Below the pieces are notes generated by a model. It was not told the origin of the DNA. It saw only the letters and a program-made list of their open reading frames with translations, and made no database searches. From an uncultured virus (IMG/VR IMGVR_UViG_2657245648_000004) (Duplodnaviria; Heunggongvirae; Uroviricota; Caudoviricetes), in the IMG/VR virus record IMGVR_UViG_2657245648_000004: DNA of 64,000 bases. One strand, written 5' to 3'. Of the stretch, positions 12,076 through 63,606 are shown piece after piece. Position 1 is the stretch's first letter; each line of letters begins with the position of its first letter. The translations under genes were made by a program, and so were the position numbers.

Positions 12076-12188
12076 TGGTCATCCAACCTATATATACAAA
12101 ATGGGCATCCGCCCGGATTCGCCGTTAGCATCCGCTTTCGGCAGGCAATAAAAAAGCGCCCTTTAGGACGCTTCATTTCTATAAATGA

Positions 12189-12380
12189 TTATTTACTTAA
12201 AGCTTGGCGTACAAATGCATCTTTTGCTTCAAGTAGCTTTCTTAATCCTGTGGATTTTTCAGGCCCGTCAGGAAGTTGCTCATCCATTTGCCGAGCTAAA
12301 TCACCAATTGGCTTACTAACTTGCTGCAAATGTTCAGGTAAATGTTCATATTGGAAATATTGGATAATAGGGCTTGGCAT
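12189..12380 (-). CDS. Small helical-hairpin protein, candidate anti-defence sponge
   Basis: YFQYEHLPEHLQ..LPDGPEKSTGLRKLLEAKDAFVR; bounded by terminators; syntenic with the Tad1-like gene of prophage 2. Confidence 0.6.
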   Translation of the reverse strand: MPSPIIQYFQYEHLPEHLQQVSKPIGDLARQMDEQLPDGPEKSTGLRKLLEAKDAFVRQALSK

Positions 12381-12603
12381 TTTCTTCTCGCAAAAAAAGC
12401 ACCCGAAGGTGCTATGGTTAAAAATTAAGTTCTATTTGATGAGTGCAATTGCTTTTAATCTTTCAAAAGTAAAACCATAAATTGCCATGGCTTGAAACCT
12501 TAATTTGAAGAAATGGCACCAGAATTCATTTTGTGCTCAGAATATATTGAGCATCTGACATATTGATTTGCTTTTCAGGCATTTGTAGTACCTTTAGCTA
12601 CGT

Positions 12604-12840
12604 TTACTTTTTATTCCAAACCTCTGATCTAGGTTCATCACCAACTAAGCGGATGCCTTGAGGACCACCTACATCAAATGTTGCCGTGATAGTCGCTGGA
12701 CCCTCAAAAACACTACAATTCATTTTTACAGCGGTTAATCCAGCTAATGGAATACCTGTTTCCTCGTCACAAAGAGCAAGATGAGAAGATTTATCTGAAA
12801 CTCTTTTAAGTACCAAATGTCTAACTTTTGATTCACTCAT
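12604..12840 (-). CDS. Conserved hypothetical protein
   Basis: Homologous to 62273-62503 (RHLVLKR..CDEETG.PLAG..GPATIT). Confidence 0.75.
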   Translation of the reverse strand: MSESKVRHLVLKRVSDKSSHLALCDEETGIPLAGLTAVKMNCSVFEGPATITATFDVGGPQGIRLVGDEPRSEVWNKK

Positions 12841-12938
12841 AAGCCAAACTCCATAAATGACAAAAGCGCTGTTTGGGCGCTTTTATAGGTGAAAATTGTG
12901 TCTAAAGTGAATTTAGGATTGCCTGTCATCGGCGATAA

Positions 12939-13331
12939 TTACTCACAGTTAAATCCAGTTCCAACAAGGTCTTTTTTCAAATTTGAAACGAGATTTTGTT
13001 GTTCCTGCTGTTGTCCACTAAGATAATTTTTATCTAGAGTCTCTGCACCATCAATAGATTTATAAAGCTCTTTAGATTCCTCTAAATTGTCTTTTAAAAA
13101 CGTGGTGAGGTTTAGTTTCGCCTGGGCAGCTCTACATAAATTATTTTTAGCTTCTAAATCTTGAGTAGCCTGTTTTACTTGACCAGTTGTAGGATCAAAA
13201 GAATATGCATTTGCCATTGCTGACTCCAAAGCTTCAGACAATCGATCATATTCTTTAAGATATTTTTGACTTGGTTCAGCTAAACAAGTGATGGAAATTA
13301 GGGTTAGACATACAAAAGCTATTGTTTTCAT
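12939..13331 (-). CDS. Secreted/periplasmic helical protein (accessory)
   Basis: Signal peptide MKTIAFVCLTLISITCLA; absent from the equivalent position in prophage 2. Confidence 0.65.
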   Translation of the reverse strand: MKTIAFVCLTLISITCLAEPSQKYLKEYDRLSEALESAMANAYSFDPTTGQVKQATQDLEAKNNLCRAAQAKLNLTTFLKDNLEESKELYKSIDGAETLDKNYLSGQQQEQQNLVSNLKKDLVGTGFNCE

Positions 13332-13375
13332 ATTGTATAAATTCTGATGTTTTAAAAAAAATAACATAAGAAAAA

Positions 13376-35992: not shown

Positions 35993-37207
35993 ATGGCCTC
36001 TGCAAAACTTTCTGATCTTAAAATTAAAGCACTGAAACCTAAAGAAAAAGTCTACAGAATATTAGATGCAGATAGACTTTACATAGAAGTCCGACCTTCA
36101 GGTGCTAAAGTTTGGCGGTTTAAGTTTGTTTTTAATGGTAAAGAATCTTCTATGAGTCTTGGCGAATACCCAGCTATTACTTTGGCAGACGCTAGAATCT
36201 TAAAGGATGAAATGCGAGCAAAATTAGCCAAAGGCATACACCCAGTAGAAGATAGACAAAATAATAAGGCCAAGGCATTAGAAGAAGGAAAAAATACATT
36301 CAACGCTATTGCAGCCGAATTTAAAGAAAAACGTATGACGTTGAAGTCTGAAATTTATCAAGAGAAGTTCGATACTGCTTTAGAAAAAGATATATGCCCA
36401 GTTATTGGCAAAAAAAATATTAAAGATGTGACTGCGGCTGACGTATTGAAGATTTTAAATAATACGATTAATCGTGTTACTAAAGAAACCAATGGAAAAA
36501 TGACAGGTGAATCTGCCGCTTTACAAAATCGAAGATTCATTGGTGCTGTAACCCGTTATGCAATTGCCACATTGCGACTAGAGAATGACCCGACTTATGC
36601 TGTACGCGATGTTATCAAGCGCCCTCGTGTAAAACATGCAAGAGCCTTAACCAAAGAAGAAAGAAAAAAAGCAAGAACTCAATTGCCTAAATACAATGGA
36701 ACAGAAACGGTCAAAAATGCTGGCTTCATTCTCTTATATACAATGCTTCGGGCAATTGAAATTAGAAAAATGCAATGGAAATGGGTCGAGTTTGATACAA
36801 GACTTATTAGATTTCCAGAAGAGGCAATGAAAAAATCCAGAATCCATATTCTCCCTATATCTGACCAAGTTTATGAAGTTCTTAAACGCCAATATACTAT
36901 TTCTGGTGATAGCGAATTAGTTTTCCCTGCTATTTTCAGTAAGAAAAATGATGGCATGTTAGCTAAAGAAACGCTTAACAGTATGCTTGAATATATTGGC
37001 TTAAAAGGCGTTACCACTCATGATTTTAGAGCTACAGCTTCTACCCTACTATATGAAAAGGGCTATGAGGAAGCTTGGGTAGAAAAACAGCTTGCTCATG
37101 CTGAATCTAACAAGACAAAAGCATCGTACGACCATTCGCAGCACTTAGAGGCTAGACGGAAAATGATGCAAGACTGGGCTGATATTGTAGATAGTTGGAA
37201 AGACTAA
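35993..37207 (+). CDS. int: Tyrosine integrase (P4-like, with arm-binding domain), probably belonging to prophage 2
   Basis: SLGEYPAITLADAR; catalytic R (MLRAIE), HDFR, LAH, Y. Confidence 0.95.
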   Translation: MASAKLSDLKIKALKPKEKVYRILDADRLYIEVRPSGAKVWRFKFVFNGKESSMSLGEYPAITLADARILKDEMRAKLAKGIHPVEDRQNNKAKALEEGKNTFNAIAAEFKEKRMTLKSEIYQEKFDTALEKDICPVIGKKNIKDVTAADVLKILNNTINRVTKETNGKMTGESAALQNRRFIGAVTRYAIATLRLENDPTYAVRDVIKRPRVKHARALTKEERKKARTQLPKYNGTETVKNAGFILLYTMLRAIEIRKMQWKWVEFDTRLIRFPEEAMKKSRIHILPISDQVYEVLKRQYTISGDSELVFPAIFSKKNDGMLAKETLNSMLEYIGLKGVTTHDFRATASTLLYEKGYEEAWVEKQLAHAESNKTKASYDHSQHLEARRKMMQDWADIVDSWKD

Positions 37208-37522: not shown

Positions 37523-38077
37523 TTACTTCTTTAAAAAGAGTGCTCGTTCTGCTTCTCGGCGACGAACTAGGCCCTTCATAACCTTGCCACCTGCTTTGTT
37601 CCAAACTAGGAATTGATCAGCAGCACCTTGATAGTCACGTTTATTGAGTTTCTTTAATAAGGTTGAATTATTAAAAGCACCAGAGCCAATGTTGTAAGTC
37701 AGCGATACTAATGCATCAAACTGATTTTGAGTTAAAGGTACAGTTACCGATTCATTTACAGTCTTTTCAAATTTGGCTAAGTCATGCTTAAAGTAAGTCT
37801 TAGCTTGCTCAGGTGTGCAAGTATCACCTTGCTTAACCTTCACGCCATTTGGATAAACTGTTGTGCCAGTGCCAATAGTCCAGACTCCTACACCATCGTC
37901 ATAAGCTTTGAATCGTGTGTCTTCAAATCCTGAAATTAGATTTACACCAACATCACTTGTAGTCATGCCAGAAGGCGCAAGTTTATCGACCACCTTATTT
38001 AGATCATCTACTTGTGCTTGTGTAAGCTTGCCACCTGCAATCACACGAGCAGCATCAAAGAATGGTTTAGTTGTCAT
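37523..38077 (-). CDS. Endolysin, GH24 lysozyme
   Basis: FE..AYDDGVGVWTIGTG catalytic triad; QNQFDALVS..YNIG; GLVRRREAE. Confidence 0.93.
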   Translation of the reverse strand: MTTKPFFDAARVIAGGKLTQAQVDDLNKVVDKLAPSGMTTSDVGVNLISGFEDTRFKAYDDGVGVWTIGTGTTVYPNGVKVKQGDTCTPEQAKTYFKHDLAKFEKTVNESVTVPLTQNQFDALVSLTYNIGSGAFNNSTLLKKLNKRDYQGAADQFLVWNKAGGKVMKGLVRRREAERALFLKK

Positions 38078-38285
38078 TGGATTCACCTTTCTTTTTCTCT
38101 AACTCAGAGCTACCAAAATAAAAGCCACATGCAGTTGTCATAGCCCCAGCAATAAAACCCAATGCCGTATTAATCAGATTGCTGTTTTCTCGCGGCATAT
38201 CCACAAAAAATAAAGCAATCACTAAAACAAACATCAGTCCCACTAATGCGAAAGCTAGATAAGCTCTTGTGTTTTCACTATTCAT
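38067..38285 (-). CDS. Holin-like protein (2 TM)
   Basis: Two TM helices, FYFGSS motif, upstream of the endolysin. Confidence 0.75.
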   Translation of the reverse strand: MNSENTRAYLAFALVGLMFVLVIALFFVDMPRENSNLINTALGFIAGAMTTACGFYFGSSELEKKKGESNDN

Positions 38286-59029: not shown

Positions 59030-59980
59030 TTATTTGATCTTGTGCTTGAATGCCACAATACGGATTTGTTTTGGATCGTAAACTCGTTCCCAGTTGGTGC
59101 CTGTTGCAAGACCAGAGTTCTTCGGTGCAATTCCAGTCGTCCCTGCCCATTTAATGCCACGAGGATGCAATACAAAGTGACGACGGTTAATTAGAATGTC
59201 TACACCAGCAAGACTATCTCGGTCTGTTTCTACTCCATTTGGTGCGCCAATATCCTGGAAACCAATCGCGCCCTGGCCAAACAGGAATGAGGTGAATACA
59301 TCACCTTCAACTGGCATACCGTCATCAACAATCACACGGCGATCCATGAAGGTTTTATAGAGCAAAACACCATCAGCATCACGTACAGTTTCAATCAAGC
59401 CTTGCTTAGATAAGGCAGCCATAGTGAACGAATGCATTGAAATCGCCGTCAATTTATCAACCGCATCACCAAGTTTGTAAGATGCATCCACAAATGAATG
59501 CCCATCAATGACTGCAGCTGCGCCAGTTCCTGCTGAAATATCGTGAACATTGCTAGCCATATTTGCAGCACTGAATACGCCTTTTAACGTGTTTACAGTA
59601 AAGCCTTGAAATTCACGTGACCAGTAATCTGCTACAAGATCACCAACTGCACCTAAAGGATCATCACCAGATAATGCCTTTGCTAAATCATTAGCACCCC
59701 ATGCTTTACCACGAGCATGAAGAATTGCTAAATCCTGACCCGATGTGATGTTATTTACAGTTAAAGGATTTTGATCAGAGAGAACCTCCGACTCACCACT
59801 TAAGTCATCCCAGAAAGGAATATTTACAGTGGTACCGCCTTTTGTTCCAAATGCCACATCTACATCCAGATCCCCAACAATACCGGATTGCCATAAAGCA
59901 GACTTTTCGGCAGTTTTGTTTAATACATACGGAGTGAATAACTCAGGTACGATTACATCAGCAATTTTTGTCTCAGCCAT
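59030..59980 (-). CDS. Major capsid protein, prophage 2 (different lineage from 10327-11280)
   Basis: T.IADVIVPELF..Y, GG..VNIPFW.DL.G, VE.DRD, LHPRG.KW. Confidence 0.88.
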   Translation of the reverse strand: MAETKIADVIVPELFTPYVLNKTAEKSALWQSGIVGDLDVDVAFGTKGGTTVNIPFWDDLSGESEVLSDQNPLTVNNITSGQDLAILHARGKAWGANDLAKALSGDDPLGAVGDLVADYWSREFQGFTVNTLKGVFSAANMASNVHDISAGTGAAAVIDGHSFVDASYKLGDAVDKLTAISMHSFTMAALSKQGLIETVRDADGVLLYKTFMDRRVIVDDGMPVEGDVFTSFLFGQGAIGFQDIGAPNGVETDRDSLAGVDILINRRHFVLHPRGIKWAGTTGIAPKNSGLATGTNWERVYDPKQIRIVAFKHKIK

Positions 59981-59993
59981 TAGGCTTTACTCC

Positions 59994-60791
59994 TTAAAGT
60001 TTAATACCATGTTTTGCCGCTAGCTCTTTAGCTAGTTGCGGGTTTTCATTTCGTAATTGCGCCAATTTGGTCATGTTTACCGTGCCATCTGCTTTTAAGA
60101 TGTCAGGCTGACCTTTTGAGTTGTTGCTACCTGGTGCACCCATACCATTTGGTTTTGGCCAGTAATACGGCTTCTGCTCACGTAGAGACTCAACCCACTC
60201 TTTTGGCGATAATGCTGTCTGGCCATCTTTGCCAATAATCACTTCGCCGTTTTCATCAACAGCAACCGCTTTGCCGTTTTCATCTAATGCAAACTTTGAT
60301 TTAGCTAAAAACGCAATGTCACCTGTTGCTTCAGGTAATGCTTCAAGCTCTACAGCTGCTTGAACGATTTGTCCCTGAATTACTGATTCCTTAAACTTAT
60401 TTGCATAAGCTTCTGCTTTGTCAGCTCGGTCTTTTTCGACTTTAAGTACCCGTTCATGTTCTTCACGCATCTTCTCGGTACGTTTCTGAATCACTTCGGT
60501 AATCTTGCCTTCAGCGATTAATTTGGCTTCTTCATCCTGATCAATCTGAGAGAAGACCTTTTTAACAATTTCAGGATCAATACCTTCAAATTGTTTTTGA
60601 AGTTCCTGAAGTTGGCGATTTGCAGTTCTTGCGGCCTCTCGCTCGCTTTGAAGTGCAGATTTCAAACCTTTTGGATCTTCGTAACCTTCTAGGTCAAGGC
60701 GAAACTTCCCGTTTTCCTCGACATATAAAGCGCGGTGCTCTTCTTTGATGGCATCAAGTGAATCAACAATAAATGGCAATGACATGTTCAA
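59994..60791 (-). CDS. Capsid scaffolding protein, prophage 2
   Basis: GLKSALQSER coiled coil; upstream of MCP. Confidence 0.78.
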   Translation of the reverse strand: MNMSLPFIVDSLDAIKEEHRALYVEENGKFRLDLEGYEDPKGLKSALQSEREAARTANRQLQELQKQFEGIDPEIVKKVFSQIDQDEEAKLIAEGKITEVIQKRTEKMREEHERVLKVEKDRADKAEAYANKFKESVIQGQIVQAAVELEALPEATGDIAFLAKSKFALDENGKAVAVDENGEVIIGKDGQTALSPKEWVESLREQKPYYWPKPNGMGAPGSNNSKGQPDILKADGTVNMTKLAQLRNENPQLAKELAAKHGIKL

Positions 60792-60874
60792 ACCTCTCGT
60801 TTGATTTGGGATAAAGCCTTATCTCAAGGCATTAAAAAAGCGCCCCTTAGGACGCTGTATTTCGATTAATAAAG

Positions 60875-61495
60875 TTATGCGATGTTAAAACCTTCAACAC
60901 CACGCTTCTGACGATTTCGGGTACGTTGCTCTAGCCACATTTGGCCTTGCTCAATATTAGTAATAGCAAGTGAATTTTCACGGCAAGGAAACTTTTCATT
61001 AAGAACACGTAATCGATGTAAAACAATCGCAATTAAAGCTTCATTCGTGATGCCATTAACTCCAACTTCCTTAACTGGACCAAGTTGGAATTGAATTGGA
61101 GTAAGTGAGTCTCCAGCTACGACATCATAGAAATGACCTGGTTCAAGAGACTGCTCATCGTCTCGGGTTTTAACGGTTTCGTTATGGAAAACCGTTACTT
61201 CGTTATCATCTTTATGGATTTCACGGCCCATTACACAATTTTGAAAACCATCTGGTTGATATGAATGTTCAAAAACATCCTTTGGTGACCAAGAAATATA
61301 ACCTTCATGATCAGGATGATTAGCTTTGCCGCCATCTTTATATTCGATTAAATAACCAGGATCACTTGGGTCTTCATTTTCAGGGATTTGCCACCCTTGG
61401 TATTCATTGTATTCACCACGCGTCATGGGCGTTGCTAAAACTGACTTAGTACCAATGTATGCAACCATTGATAATGCTAATAACTTCTTAGACAT
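60875..61495 (-). CDS. Two-domain protein: YIGTK/SWSPK domain fused to a Tad1-like nucleotide-signal sponge
   Basis: C-half IQFQ.GP....GVNG...LIAIV.HRL....FPCRENSLAIT.IE...MWL..RT..R..RGVEG matches the recalled Tad1 pattern. Confidence 0.75.
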   Translation of the reverse strand: MSKKLLALSMVAYIGTKSVLATPMTRGEYNEYQGWQIPENEDPSDPGYLIEYKDGGKANHPDHEGYISWSPKDVFEHSYQPDGFQNCVMGREIHKDDNEVTVFHNETVKTRDDEQSLEPGHFYDVVAGDSLTPIQFQLGPVKEVGVNGITNEALIAIVLHRLRVLNEKFPCRENSLAITNIEQGQMWLEQRTRNRQKRGVEGFNIA

Positions 61496-61567
61496 TTTTT
61501 ATACTCACAAAAAAAGCACCTCTAGGCGCTAGTTAAATTTATTTAAAGCTCAAAACATCAAAGAAAA

Positions 61568-62080
61568 TTAAAGGTTTTCAATCAGTTCAATAAGCTTATT
61601 ATTTACTGAATCTTGTACTTTATTGTTTAAACGAGGAGCTTTCAAAAGTGAGGTCAATACTTCAATAGAATGAAGATTTGCATTATGAGCATCATAAGTG
61701 TTAACACCTGCACCTGTGACAGTTATATGGGATCCCAAGCTTTCAATTTTTGGTGATTCAACTGCTTTAAGTGATGGCTCATCTAAATTCTGGCCAACCT
61801 CAACCGCTTCACCTTCGATTACTTGTGGCTCTGAAGGTGGTTCAATAATTTCAAATCCGAGCTGTTTTAAGTTTTCAATGGCAGCTGTAAGTGCAAATGG
61901 ATTGTAATCACCAACTGGTGAGTCTTCAGGAATCAAATACTCGCCGTTTACTTGCACTCCAGAGTGAAGTTTTAAGATGCATATAATGCGTTTAGGTAAT
62001 GCATCTGGTGATGGCTGGTCCACATTGAAATATTCAACATTTTGCACTAACTCTTGAAGGGTTTGCGGTTGCTTTGTCAT
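61568..62080 (-). CDS. Protein with divergent Gp49/Acb4-like N-terminal domain
   Basis: V.NVEY..IICILKLHSGVQVNGE..A...AIENL..L.F. Confidence 0.5.
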   Translation of the reverse strand: MTKQPQTLQELVQNVEYFNVDQPSPDALPKRIICILKLHSGVQVNGEYLIPEDSPVGDYNPFALTAAIENLKQLGFEIIEPPSEPQVIEGEAVEVGQNLDEPSLKAVESPKIESLGSHITVTGAGVNTYDAHNANLHSIEVLTSLLKAPRLNNKVQDSVNNKLIELIENL

Positions 62081-62272
62081 GATGACCTCACATAAAAAAA
62101 GCACCCGAAGGTGCTATGGTTGAAGTTTTTTAGCGTTTCCGCTTTAAGTAATCTTTAAAATGTTTTTTTCTTTGCCAGTAGATAAGCCCACTGACAATTA
62201 AAATTGATACAAAGATAAATTCTGGACTAATACTCATAATCCTTACCTATTAAAAATCTACATAAACTTTCG

Positions 62273-62503
62273 CTACGTTTCCTTTACTTGAGTTGGTCTT
62301 GGCTCATCGCTTACCAAGCGAATACCATTAACACCATAAGCTTCGAAAGTTACTGTTATTGTGGCTGGTCCATCACTAGCATTACTGTTCATCTGTACTG
62401 CTCTTTGACCAGCTAATGGCAAACCAGTTTCTTCATCACAAATAACTAAGTAACCTTTTAAGGTTGGGTGACGCTTAAGCACTAAATGTCTTGATTCACT
62501 CAT
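62273..62503 (-). CDS. Conserved hypothetical protein
   Basis: Homologue of 12604-12840. Confidence 0.75.
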   Translation of the reverse strand: MSESRHLVLKRHPTLKGYLVICDEETGLPLAGQRAVQMNSNASDGPATITVTFEAYGVNGIRLVSDEPRPTQVKET

Positions 62504-63606
62504 AAGCCCAAATCCTTAAATATTTGTTCATCTAACATTCGAAGTTGGTCCAGTGTATAAAGTCTCCCATCTGGATCGAAGAACTTATCAAATTCAAATT
62601 TCCCTTCTTTAAAGAGCTTGAAACGCTTAGGCCCTAACCATTCTTTCTGAAAGAAGTCATCTGTCTTCTTAAAGAACTCTTTAAATGTTGTATTTGCATC
62701 CAGTTGGCCGATAAGTTGGCTTCTCTCGTCCTTAGGGATGTCTTTAACTCTTCGCTCATCCATCACAAATGGGCGCTCTCCCACTAATCGCCCATCTTTC
62801 TCAACTGGTACTAAGATGCTGCGACAATTAGGATGTAACGGCGGTATCCGTTTTGCTGGGTCGTTTATTTCCCAAACGGTACCATCCAGTGAGGCGCAAA
62901 GTTTTGATGTTCTACCATCCAACGTTGCAACCAATCGAACATATTCAAAGCCTATCTGGTTGAAGCTATTTAGATATGCTTGATTGGCTACATGACTTCT
63001 AACCGTTCTTACCGTCCGATCGATATCAGACTTACTGCTGGTTAAGATGCCATCTTCATAATTGAGGCGCTTAGTCCCACCAATGCGCTGAACAATTTCT
63101 TGATTCGTTTTACCTGAGCTAATCCCATCTCGAATAGCATATTCAACCTTTTGACGGGCGCTTTCAGCCAACTTAGTTAAAAGGTCATCGACCAAGGCTC
63201 CGCCAACTAAAGGAACCTTTTTAGCCGCCTTATAAAGCTTGTCACCATTAGGCTGTTTAATCTTTCCGCCGTACAACTTCGCTGTGTAATTAGCCTCATA
63301 TACCGCTAATGCTGTAGCTGAAACAGCAAATGCTTCAGGTAATGAAGTATTTATTACCGTAAACCACTGAGAGATTAGGTCCCGAATCTCTTTGAGGTTT
63401 GTAGTTGTATATTGACCACTAGCAAGTGCTGCTTTTTCAGAATCACTCAACTCATCTAACAAATCTCTAAGTTTTGCCAGCATTACAGCCGATTCATCAT
63501 GAAAAATCTTTAGTAAATCATTCACTGACTGAGAAGAAACCCGGTATAAATAAGCCTGGTGTTGTGTAAGCACTTCAATCAATGATTTTTCGATATTTGA
63601 AGCCAT
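62500..63606 (-). CDS. Head morphogenesis protein, prophage 2
   Basis: PPLHPNCRS; homologue of 13376-14479. Confidence 0.9.
   Translation of the reverse strand: MASNIEKSLIEVLTQHQAYLYRVSSQSVNDLLKIFHDESAVMLAKLRDLLDELSDSEKAALASGQYTTTNLKEIRDLISQWFTVINTSLPEAFAVSATALAVYEANYTAKLYGGKIKQPNGDKLYKAAKKVPLVGGALVDDLLTKLAESARQKVEYAIRDGISSGKTNQEIVQRIGGTKRLNYEDGILTSSKSDIDRTVRTVRSHVANQAYLNSFNQIGFEYVRLVATLDGRTSKLCASLDGTVWEINDPAKRIPPLHPNCRSILVPVEKDGRLVGERPFVMDERRVKDIPKDERSQLIGQLDANTTFKEFFKKTDDFFQKEWLGPKRFKLFKEGKFEFDKFFDPDGRLYTLDQLRMLDEQIFKDLGL

Follow-up and report, generated by a model that had tools for sequence, protein, structure and literature searches.

A probable two-gene anti-signalling cassette with a fused Tad1 domain in a variable head-module slot of an Acinetobacter-type temperate phage

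The window, that is, the whole stretch of 64,000 nucleotides analysed here (IMG/VR record IMGVR_UViG_2657245648_000004, an uncultured virus of the Caudoviricetes), contains two small minus-strand genes between a MuF-type head-morphogenesis gene and a head scaffolding gene. Gene 1 encodes an N-terminal domain (NTD) fused to a Tad1 domain, and gene 2 encodes a protein whose N-terminal part is modelled with an Acb4-like fold. The locus is probably a two-gene anti-signalling cassette, placed in a variable slot among the head genes of an Acinetobacter-type temperate phage. Tad1, the Acb4-like fold, sponge fusions, and anti-defence hotspots are already known kinds. The NTD is the most novel part of the locus. 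The original prediction, made from the sequence alone, placed two terminator-bounded genes between the head-morphogenesis and scaffold genes; both open reading frames (ORFs) were found there, and a hairpin follows each of them. The two genes and their parts are as follows.

60875-61495, minus strand: gene 1, 206 residues, NTD fused to a complete Tad1 domain
61250-61495, minus strand: gene 1 NTD, residues 1-82, a conserved alpha/beta domain without a Pfam family
60878-61246, minus strand: gene 1 Tad1 domain, residues 84-206
61568-62080, minus strand: gene 2, 170 residues from ATG, with an Acb4-like N-domain, a disordered linker, and a C-terminal helical hairpin
61841-62080, minus strand: gene 2 N-domain, approximately residues 1-80, (alpha)-beta-beta-beta-alpha, with SPO1 Acb4 as the nearest fold
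61571-61699, minus strand: C-terminal helical hairpin ("tail") of gene 2, residues 128-170

For gene 2, the ORF listing extends to a GTG at 62104; the MTKQ start was taken, as in 11 of the 16 aligned family members. Statements from the literature are based on passages of the sources named.

The two domains of gene 1

By sequence comparison, residues 84-206 of gene 1 are a complete Tad1 sponge domain. When PDB sequences were searched using phmmer, gene 1 matched CmTad1 (8kbb; E 7.5e-17, residues 132-203) and four CbTad1 sequences (E 2.6e-7 to 3.4e-7, residues 131-204), and its Tad1 half also matched PhiKZ gp184 (8y6v chain I; E 3.8e-6). The entry 8KBB is apo-CmTad1 according to the data-availability passage of its paper. 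In the PHROG search, residues 98-204 matched phrog_2428. Full-length homologues of gene 1 are 204-211 residues long with 58-97% identity, and PF24729.3 is listed in the precomputed annotation of homologues in this range, such as P0005. The domain was considered complete because a stand-alone homologue of 130 residues (P0023, 71% identical) aligns from residue 84 of gene 1. The Tad1-like fusion had been predicted from a motif in the C-terminal half of the protein, and all letters of this motif were present in order at residues 136-202. The spacing was literal from REN onward and compressed in the first half, with five residues, not two, between FQLG and GV.

The residues contacting the ligands were mapped through the phmmer alignments to CbTad1 and CmTad1, and their roles were taken from the Tad1/Tad2 preprint. 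According to that preprint, Tad1 is a trimer of dimers whose dimer pockets hold glycocyclic ADP-ribose (gcADPR) and cyclic dinucleotides and whose trimer pockets hold cyclic trinucleotides. Five of the six published ligand-contact residues were retained in gene 1. The cyclic-trinucleotide contacts R90 and T97 of CbTad1 correspond to R172 and T179, and the contacts N92, R109, and R113 for gcADPR and cyclic dinucleotides, three of the four residues of that pocket, are identical as N174, R191, and R195. Moreover, the hexamer-interface pair M102/W103 of CmTad1 is found as M186/W187. The predicted Tad1-like fusion was thus supported by both the match to CmTad1 and the retained cyclic-trinucleotide contacts and most of the gcADPR and cyclic-dinucleotide contacts.

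The NTD matched phrog_872, a PHROG of unknown function, over residues 4-82, and matched no Pfam family even at E<=10. A phmmer search of 1.84 billion cluster representatives using residues 1-97 yielded 1646 representatives at E<=1e-3, including 943 at E<=1e-10. The architecture census was performed on the best 150 of the 1646, a sample biased towards query-like sequences. In this sample, Pfam assigned a Tad2-like domain to 42 representatives, Sequestin (PF21825) to 42, Acb4 (PF13876) to 10, the Acb2/Tad1 hairpin to 5, and WDGH (PF25311) to 1; the equation of PF13876 with Acb4 and of PF21825 with Sequestin follows passages of the Acb4 and the Sequestin/Lockin preprints, respectively. Labelling of the same 150 with jackhmmer gave 34 NTD-Tad2, 30 NTD-Sequestin, 34 NTD with an unrecognised segment, 12 NTD alone, and 4 NTD-Tad1 proteins, and the rarer architectures placed the domain in the middle of the protein or at its C-terminus. 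Within the sample, Tad2 and Sequestin had the NTD as their most frequent fusion partner, and the NTD was also found on Tad1, Acb4, and RyR Tad. Twenty-seven NTD positions, including seven aromatics, K17, and R33, were at least 90% conserved among these query-biased 150. A tblastn search detected the NTD in 136 of 50,697 phage records, with hosts including Escherichia, Vibrio, Klebsiella, Pseudomonas, Clostridium, and Bacteroides. In phage N4, gp49 consists of NTD and Tad2, and the preceding gene, gp48, matched PF13876 (E 8.8e-35).

RyR Tad is gp68 of Pectobacterium phage vB_PatP_CB1. Since the NTD profile matched residues 4-64 of gp68 (28.1 bits; E 1.9e-5 for a nominal million sequences), the NTD and the N-domain of gp68 are, as far as sequence profiles can tell, the same domain. 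Passages of the RyR Tad preprint (bioRxiv 10.64898/2026.06.04.730250) describe that N-domain, residues 1-86, as a fold of unknown function that often occurs as a single ORF, and report it as a strand-swapped dimer in the crystal.

Searches for other relatives of the NTD gave no assignment. The best Foldseek match had an E value of 1.5, which does not make the fold new, and the ESM Atlas search gave uninformative scores of 0.75-0.76. With hhalign, the probability was below 1% against each of the Tad1, Tad2, Acb4, and Sequestin alignments. A distant relationship to Tad2 was considered and dropped, as apo-SPO1 Tad2 ranked only 16th in Foldseek (E 3.9) and the hhalign probability was below 1%. Neither the NTD nor the NTD-Tad1 fusion is mentioned in passages of the Acb4, Sequestin/Lockin, sponge-diversity, and Tad2 preprints, whose supplements may list such fusions, or in the searched passages of a November 2026 editorial. 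Passages of an October 2026 review give seven sponge families, the NTD not among them, and contain no fusion terms.

Given that the NTD is found both by itself and joined to four further sponge types (Tad2, Acb4, Sequestin, and RyR Tad), it is probable that the domain acts against defences in its own right, in a way that has so far gone undiscovered. More specifically, it is possible, if rather doubtful, that the NTD is an uncharacterised signal-binding module of the sponge type with 70-80 residues. If so, its target would be an immune signal not covered by its fusion partners, and the approximately 34 of the 150 architectures with unrecognised segments would point to further anti-defence domains. 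Separately, 58 unrecognised segments of at least 45 residues were found fused to the NTD in 55 groups (representatives P0142-P0283), a few of which resemble degraded Tad2. The WDGH domain noted above is one of these segments, which were regarded as leads for further anti-defence domains.

Gene 2 and the slot between the head genes

In Pfam, PHROG, and PDB sequence searches, gene 2 matched phrog_31105 only. Its family is narrow, with 15 homologue clusters that are all at least 75% identical, and every source-named cluster originates from Acinetobacter. An AlphaFold2 model based on 16 sequences showed an N-domain at approximately residues 6-78 (predicted local distance difference test score, pLDDT, of approximately 75) with three strands and a long helix, followed by a disordered stretch at residues 81-130 and a helical hairpin at residues 131-169 (helices 131-146 and 153-169). 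When this model was compared with PDB using Foldseek, SPO1 Acb4 (9e4w) occupied ranks 1-10 (E 3.8e-3 to 2.5e-2, probability 1.00, 66-68 columns), with 18-21% identity, and SPO1 Acb4 was the top match of the N-domain in two independent PDB structure searches, with rmsd (root-mean-square deviation) values of 1.8-2.7 over 65-68 residues. The modelled core of three antiparallel strands and a helix can be superposed on 9E4W. In BFVD, the low-rmsd matches at a probability of 1.00 were small phage proteins, one of them named for the N4 Gp49/Sf6 gene 66 family (a PF13876 name), and the matches also included a 270-residue protein named for a Tad2-like domain. Accordingly, gene 2 is predicted to fold like Acb4, at the level of the fold only, and it was not assigned to PF13876 because the profile comparisons with Acb4-containing alignments were negative. 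The Acb4-like neighbour of the original prediction was therefore supported by the fold, that is, by both PDB searches and the PF13876-named BFVD match, and was left without a Pfam or hhalign link to PF13876.

The tail of gene 2, a hairpin of approximately 40 residues after a floppy linker, recurs at the extreme C-terminus of sponge proteins of four other architectures, namely, an NTD-Sequestin protein (P0056), two NTD-Tad2 proteins (P0057 and P0153), an NTD-only protein (P0033), and P0238. As these five proteins seeded the tail profile, the profile search provides no independent support; before seeding, their scores against a profile of gene 2 tails only were weak (E 4.7e-4 to 2.7). When all ORFs of the window were searched with the tail profile, only gene 2 was found, and the C-terminus of the scaffold showed no likeness. 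Oligomerisation or assembly, or else targeting, are guesses at the role of this tail.

The window consists of two related prophages placed end to end, at 1-37207 and 37523-64000. The first ends with an integrase gene (35993-37207), and the second opens with an endolysin gene (37523-38086) and holds the locus. The head modules of both prophages are homologous, and the cargo of their slots differs. In the second prophage, four small co-oriented ORFs lie on the minus strand between the MuF gene and the scaffold gene. The features around genes 1 and 2 and the corresponding slot of the sister prophage are listed below.

62500-63606, minus strand: MuF-type head-morphogenesis gene flanking the slot (PF04233, E 1.1e-13; phrog_241, E 6.5e-164)
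62273-62503, minus strand: gene of 76 residues opening the slot, phrog_1046, present in most related slots
62130-62237, minus strand: hydrophobic ORF of 35 residues, clean translation, one hydrophobic stretch and a basic tail
59994-60791, minus strand: head scaffolding gene flanking the slot (phrog_206, E 1.4e-74)
59030-59980: major capsid gene, beyond the scaffold gene
12076-13375, minus strand: slot of the sister prophage, with genes of 142, 78, and 63 residues as cargo

The variability of the slot was determined by comparison with relatives. A megablast search of phage records using 60792-62499 found eight Acinetobacter phages that share only 61483-62124, at approximately 86% identity. This shared stretch comprises gene 2 and both flanking terminators, gene 2 being kept in all eight records, and the likeness to these sister phages stops exactly at the terminators. 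In phi1_092021 and AM106, the two annotated records of the eight, the position of gene 1 holds a gene of 315 nucleotides (104 residues), and that of phi1_092021 matched PF13876 above the cut-off (E 7.1e-16).

The slot census covered 101 loci around MuF relatives and the two slots of the window. Of the 101 loci, 80 were the best of 500 IMG/VR matches, and 21 were taken from species-representative genomes, all of which except two bear an Acinetobacter title. MuF and scaffold were found in order at 85 loci; in the remaining 18, a contig end interrupted the locus or no scaffold match was present. The loci are close kin (MuF identity of 66-100%) and not independent. The 85 slots ranged from approximately 400 to 4300 bp, with Acb4 as cargo in 49, NTD-Tad1 in 11, a 63-residue protein in 8, and other or no cargo in 17. 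The NTD-Tad1 slots include that of the window and the 100%-identical L025, and the 63-residue slots include that of the sister prophage. Acb4 or NTD-Tad1 thus occupied 60 of the 85 slots, and gene 2 was found in only 2. Non-sponge cargo was found at the following positions in relatives.

L015, 5644-6264: SieB-family superinfection-exclusion gene
L006, 5793-9522: AntA/ORF6N antirepressors
L093, 6514-7365: DUF6615 gene

When 15 other slot proteins were examined using PADLOC, only one, an antirepressor of L006, matched, weakly, to candidate family PDC-S05. The slot is therefore a general accessory-gene site stocked mostly with sponges. The anti-defence hotspot proposed originally holds in that Acb4 or NTD-Tad1 fills most related slots and a PF13876 gene of 104 residues takes the place of gene 1 in phi1_092021; as a description of the slot as a whole it needs to be widened, as SieB, antirepressors, and lipoproteins are also found there.

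Three small proteins of the slots were recorded in addition. The 63-residue protein (p63; 12189-12380, minus strand) holds the cargo position in the sister prophage. It has more than 3369 homologue clusters, with 42-79% identity (most of those listed 55-79%) in phages of Vibrio, Mycobacterium, Erwinia, Gordonia, and Brevibacterium, and is fused behind the NTD in P0232. In an Atlas feature search, 22 of the 30 nearest p63 clusters were in sets carrying the PF24729 Acb2_Tad1_hairpin, which is a lead and not a result. Pfam gave nothing beyond Occludin_ELL (E 0.11), and PDB searches with the single sequence or a 30-sequence profile found neither Acb2 nor Tad1 chains. p63 is a candidate for a further sponge. 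The protein of 142 residues (12939-13367, minus strand; phrog_2564) has a signal-peptide-like start and had no Pfam or PADLOC match; its gene comes immediately behind MuF in the sister prophage, as it does in 16 of the 85 slots. The 35-residue ORF had no Pfam or PHROG match; it has its own terminator and was found in 5 of the 85 slots, and most other slots carry an ORF of 49-50 residues at that place.

Expression, proposed mechanism, and competing explanations

Three terminator-like hairpins were found around the two genes.

60856-60839, minus strand: terminator-like hairpin after gene 1, seven pairs, five of them GC, then TTTTTAAT
61530-61515, minus strand: terminator-like hairpin after gene 2 and just upstream of the gene 1 start, six pairs, then TTTTTTGT
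62115-62100, minus strand: terminator-like hairpin after the 35-residue ORF and just upstream of the gene 2 ribosome-binding site, six pairs, then TTTTTTAT

The region contained 7 terminator-like sites compared with 2.2 ± 1.5 in shuffled sequences. In a consensus scan, promoter-like (sigma-70-like) sites were not in excess (3 compared with 7.0 ± 2.6 in shuffles), and none preceded a start codon. Of the features expected of morons, genes 1 and 2 each have their own terminator, and the same consensus scan gave neither a promoter of its own. Contigs from RNA libraries span the scaffold gene, gene 1, gene 2, and parts of the MuF and head-tail genes; they cannot show transcription, strand, or timing and are neutral in this respect. 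A junction of a T-run and TGTGAG, leading from the terminator to the start codon, recurs upstream of 62080 (gene 2) and of 61495 (gene 1), and the same junction, read as the peptide LFLCE, precedes an NTD-Acb4 gene elsewhere (P0064). The terminator/TGTGAG junctions within 61483-62124 may be joints for the swapping of cassettes.

For ligand binding, oligomeric state, timing, and the role of the NTD, we infer the following mechanism from the domain identities, contact residues, fold likeness, fusion census, and slot variability described above. By homology with known Tad1, the Tad1 domain of gene 1 would assemble as a trimer of dimers, its dimer pockets sequestering Thoeris gcADPR and the cyclic dinucleotides of the cyclic oligonucleotide-based antiphage signalling system (CBASS) and its trimer pockets taking up cyclic trinucleotides. 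The NTD would hold pairs of protomers together, as a strand-swapped dimer does in RyR Tad, and this would fit the dimer units of Tad1. Judging from its model, gene 2 would be a divergent Acb4-fold protein, most likely an oligomer with cyclic dinucleotides as ligands, and assembly or targeting is the probable function of its hairpin on the flexible linker. Both genes are presumably transcribed with the capsid genes by read-through of the terminators, as is suggested by their shared orientation with the head genes and the lack of promoters. The sponges would then appear as the structural proteins, the triggers of such defences, accumulate. Such co-timing makes sense because structural proteins have been reported as triggers, namely, a capsid vertex protein for type IV Thoeris and a tail fibre for type II Thoeris (the latter in passages of bioRxiv 10.64898/2026.06.04.730250). 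Moreover, since SMODS (CD-NTase-type cyclase) matches were found in 25 of the 121 genomes of the nearest genome's genus, a selective pressure for sponges exists.

Several observations weigh against an anti-signalling cassette. In gene 1, the gcADPR contact F82 of CbTad1 is replaced by L165, the CmTad1 interface residues K96, Q98, E99, and K106 are replaced by N, E, Q, and Q, and the score against PF24729 (Acb2/Tad1 hairpin) was 25.5 bits (E 1.6e-5), under the cut-off of 27. In the one experiment found on this domain, described in passages of the RyR Tad preprint, the isolated N-domain of RyR Tad had no activity against type I Thoeris, the sole defence system tried. Gene 2 had no Pfam match even at E<=1, an 86%-identical homologue had none at E<=10, and no PDB sequence was matched with the single sequence or a profile (0 matches for the profile). 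In hhalign comparisons of the gene 2 family with Acb4-containing alignments, one alignment reached a probability of 9.5%, in a spurious stretch upstream, and another reached 6.2% with 38 columns. The mean pLDDT of the gene 2 model was only 59, no Foldseek match to PDB was found at E<=0.001, and the alpha-beta-beta-beta-alpha fold is common and resembles the dsRBD (a domain that binds double-stranded RNA), as passages of the Acb4 preprint point out. Regarding expression, no promoter-like site was found upstream of gene 1 or gene 2, three terminators require read-through, and the RNA-library contigs over both genes come from four runs of one study and from one relative at 85-99% likeness. Finally, the slots of some relatives carry non-sponge cargo, namely, SieB-family and DUF6615 genes, AntA/ORF6N antirepressors, and predicted lipoproteins.

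These points bear on several other explanations. The NTD could be a structural dimerising handle only, which swaps strands between protomers and raises the stability or avidity of the fused sponge, and binds nothing itself; this is a serious possibility, though short of an even chance. It would account for the domain-swapped dimer in the RyR Tad crystal and for the lack of anti-Thoeris I activity of the isolated domain (bioRxiv 10.64898/2026.06.04.730250), and the sponges fused to the NTD are all described as dimer-containing assemblies, that is, a trimer of dimers for Tad1, tetramers for Tad2 and Acb4, and a dimer for Sequestin. However, the NTD stands alone in 12 of the 150 representatives, with only a helical tail in P0033, and often as a single ORF according to the preprint, and a bare handle is disfavoured because it would have no reason for being encoded alone. 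Moreover, the 27 strongly conserved positions of the query-biased sample are more than a dimer interface usually needs, and the activity result covered one defence system only. For gene 2, it is conceivable that the product is a dsRBD-like RNA-binding protein or a head-assembly accessory protein that merely shares a common topology with Acb4. The missing sequence-profile link to PF13876, the dsRBD domains lower in its Foldseek list together with the dsRBD-like nature of Acb4 itself, and its retention beside the head genes in eight Acinetobacter phage records while neighbouring cargo changes are consistent with this. We consider it unlikely, as Acb4 was the best match in both independent PDB searches at the identity and rmsd given above, gene 2, being present in just 2 of 85 slots, does not qualify as a core assembly gene, it is followed by a terminator of its own and has sponge genes as neighbours, and its tail recurs only on sponge-domain proteins.

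Two further explanations concern the time and place of action. The products might be packaged inside the head and enter the cell together with the DNA, so that the sponges are there already in the first minute; the position in the head module would reflect this role, and capsid targeting would fall to the helical tail or the NTD. A precedent exists in PhiKZ gp184, which matches the Tad1 half of gene 1 and is described as a minor capsid protein of the inner surface that the head protease cleaves; passages of a 2025 preprint identify gp184 as Tad1, with a freed C-terminus that is injected. In the present locus, such packing is backed by the position of both genes between MuF and scaffold and by the layout of gene 2, with a domain, a floppy linker, and short C-terminal helices. 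However, phmmer found no similarity between the NTD and the N-terminal part of gp184, only one stretch being matched, the tail profile found nothing else in the window, the scaffold included, and the NTD genes of N4-like phages are reported to lie among replication genes, which makes this explanation very unlikely. Alternatively, genes 1 and 2 could be morons expressed from the resting prophage, each perhaps by way of a promoter that escaped recognition, which pre-load the lysogen so that CBASS or Thoeris of the host spares induction. The terminator after each gene and the typical lysogen-expressed cargo in the slots of relatives (SieB, lipoproteins, antirepressors) would fit; however, none of the 3 sigma-70-like sites in the region (7.0 ± 2.6 in shuffles) precedes either gene, and sponges made constitutively would take away the host's protection against other phages and could set off guards that sense sponges, such as Panoptes, as described in passages of the literature. 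Morons of this kind are highly improbable here. The reading preferred is an anti-signalling cassette that is presumably expressed with the head genes.

Significance and comparison with known systems

Sponges decide whether phages, including therapeutic phages, grow on bacteria armed with CBASS or Thoeris. The locus adds Tad1 in a new fused form, NTD-Tad1, and a second sponge hotspot, this one located in the head module, which can be mined in Acinetobacter prophages and whose cargo alternates between Acb4, NTD-Tad1, and a widespread 63-residue protein. Moreover, the census connects one unannotated domain, the NTD, with five sponge types in phages of Proteobacteria, Firmicutes, and Bacteroidetes, and its role can be tested directly in E. 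coli phage N4 through gp49.

Compared with Tad1 (CbTad1, 7UAV; CmTad1, 8KBB), residues 84-206 of gene 1 are homologous, by sequence, over the whole Tad1 length and keep the MW interface pair. Unlike these proteins, the gene 1 copy is fused behind an extra domain of 82 residues, has L in place of F82 and four changed interface residues, and scores below the PF24729 cut-off. Compared with SPO1 Acb4 (PDB 9E4W; PF13876), the modelled N-domain of gene 2 has the same strand-strand-strand-helix core (rmsd 1.8-2.7), and a true PF13876 gene adjoins gene 2 in the sister phage phi1_092021. However, gene 2 has no match to the PF13876 hidden Markov model, shares approximately 20% identity, has one long helix after the sheet where Acb4 has two, adds a disordered linker of approximately 50 residues and a helical hairpin, and belongs to a small family (15 clusters). 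SPO1 Acb4 itself is a tetramer with pockets lined by K36, F48, E49, Y57, N63, T70, and K81 (SPO1 numbering).

RyR Tad resembles gene 1 in that the NTD precedes a nucleotide sponge domain in the same polypeptide. The partner is a ryanodine-receptor-like helical domain instead of Tad1, and the N-domain of gp68 is shorter and divergent (28 bits), without the RGW..P.NE stretch. Two anti-signalling modules in one polypeptide are also described in passages on the Tad2-Acb4 fusion of Pasteurella phage Pm86 and the Acb4-Sequestin fusions of Pseudomonas phages YH6 and Ab09. According to the published logic, fusion to known sponges makes a domain a candidate sponge in its own right, and by analogy this logic would apply directly to the NTD. 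The published screen differs in being based on Pfam, and it is blind to the NTD because the NTD has no Pfam model.

PhiKZ gp184 shares a Tad1-like C-terminal region and, as reported, a tie to the head, whereas no likeness to the NTD was detected in its N-terminal capsid-wedging part. In N4-like phages, passages of bioRxiv 10.64898/2026.06.04.730250 describe a variable anti-signalling hotspot between primase and virion RNA polymerase, which contains Acb4, Tad2, and Sequestin. The order of N4 gp48 (Acb4) followed by gp49 (NTD-Tad2) is that of gene 2 followed by gene 1. In contrast to the N4-like hotspot, the present slot belongs to the head module, in a prophage that is temperate and bears an integrase, and each cargo gene of the slot has its own terminator.

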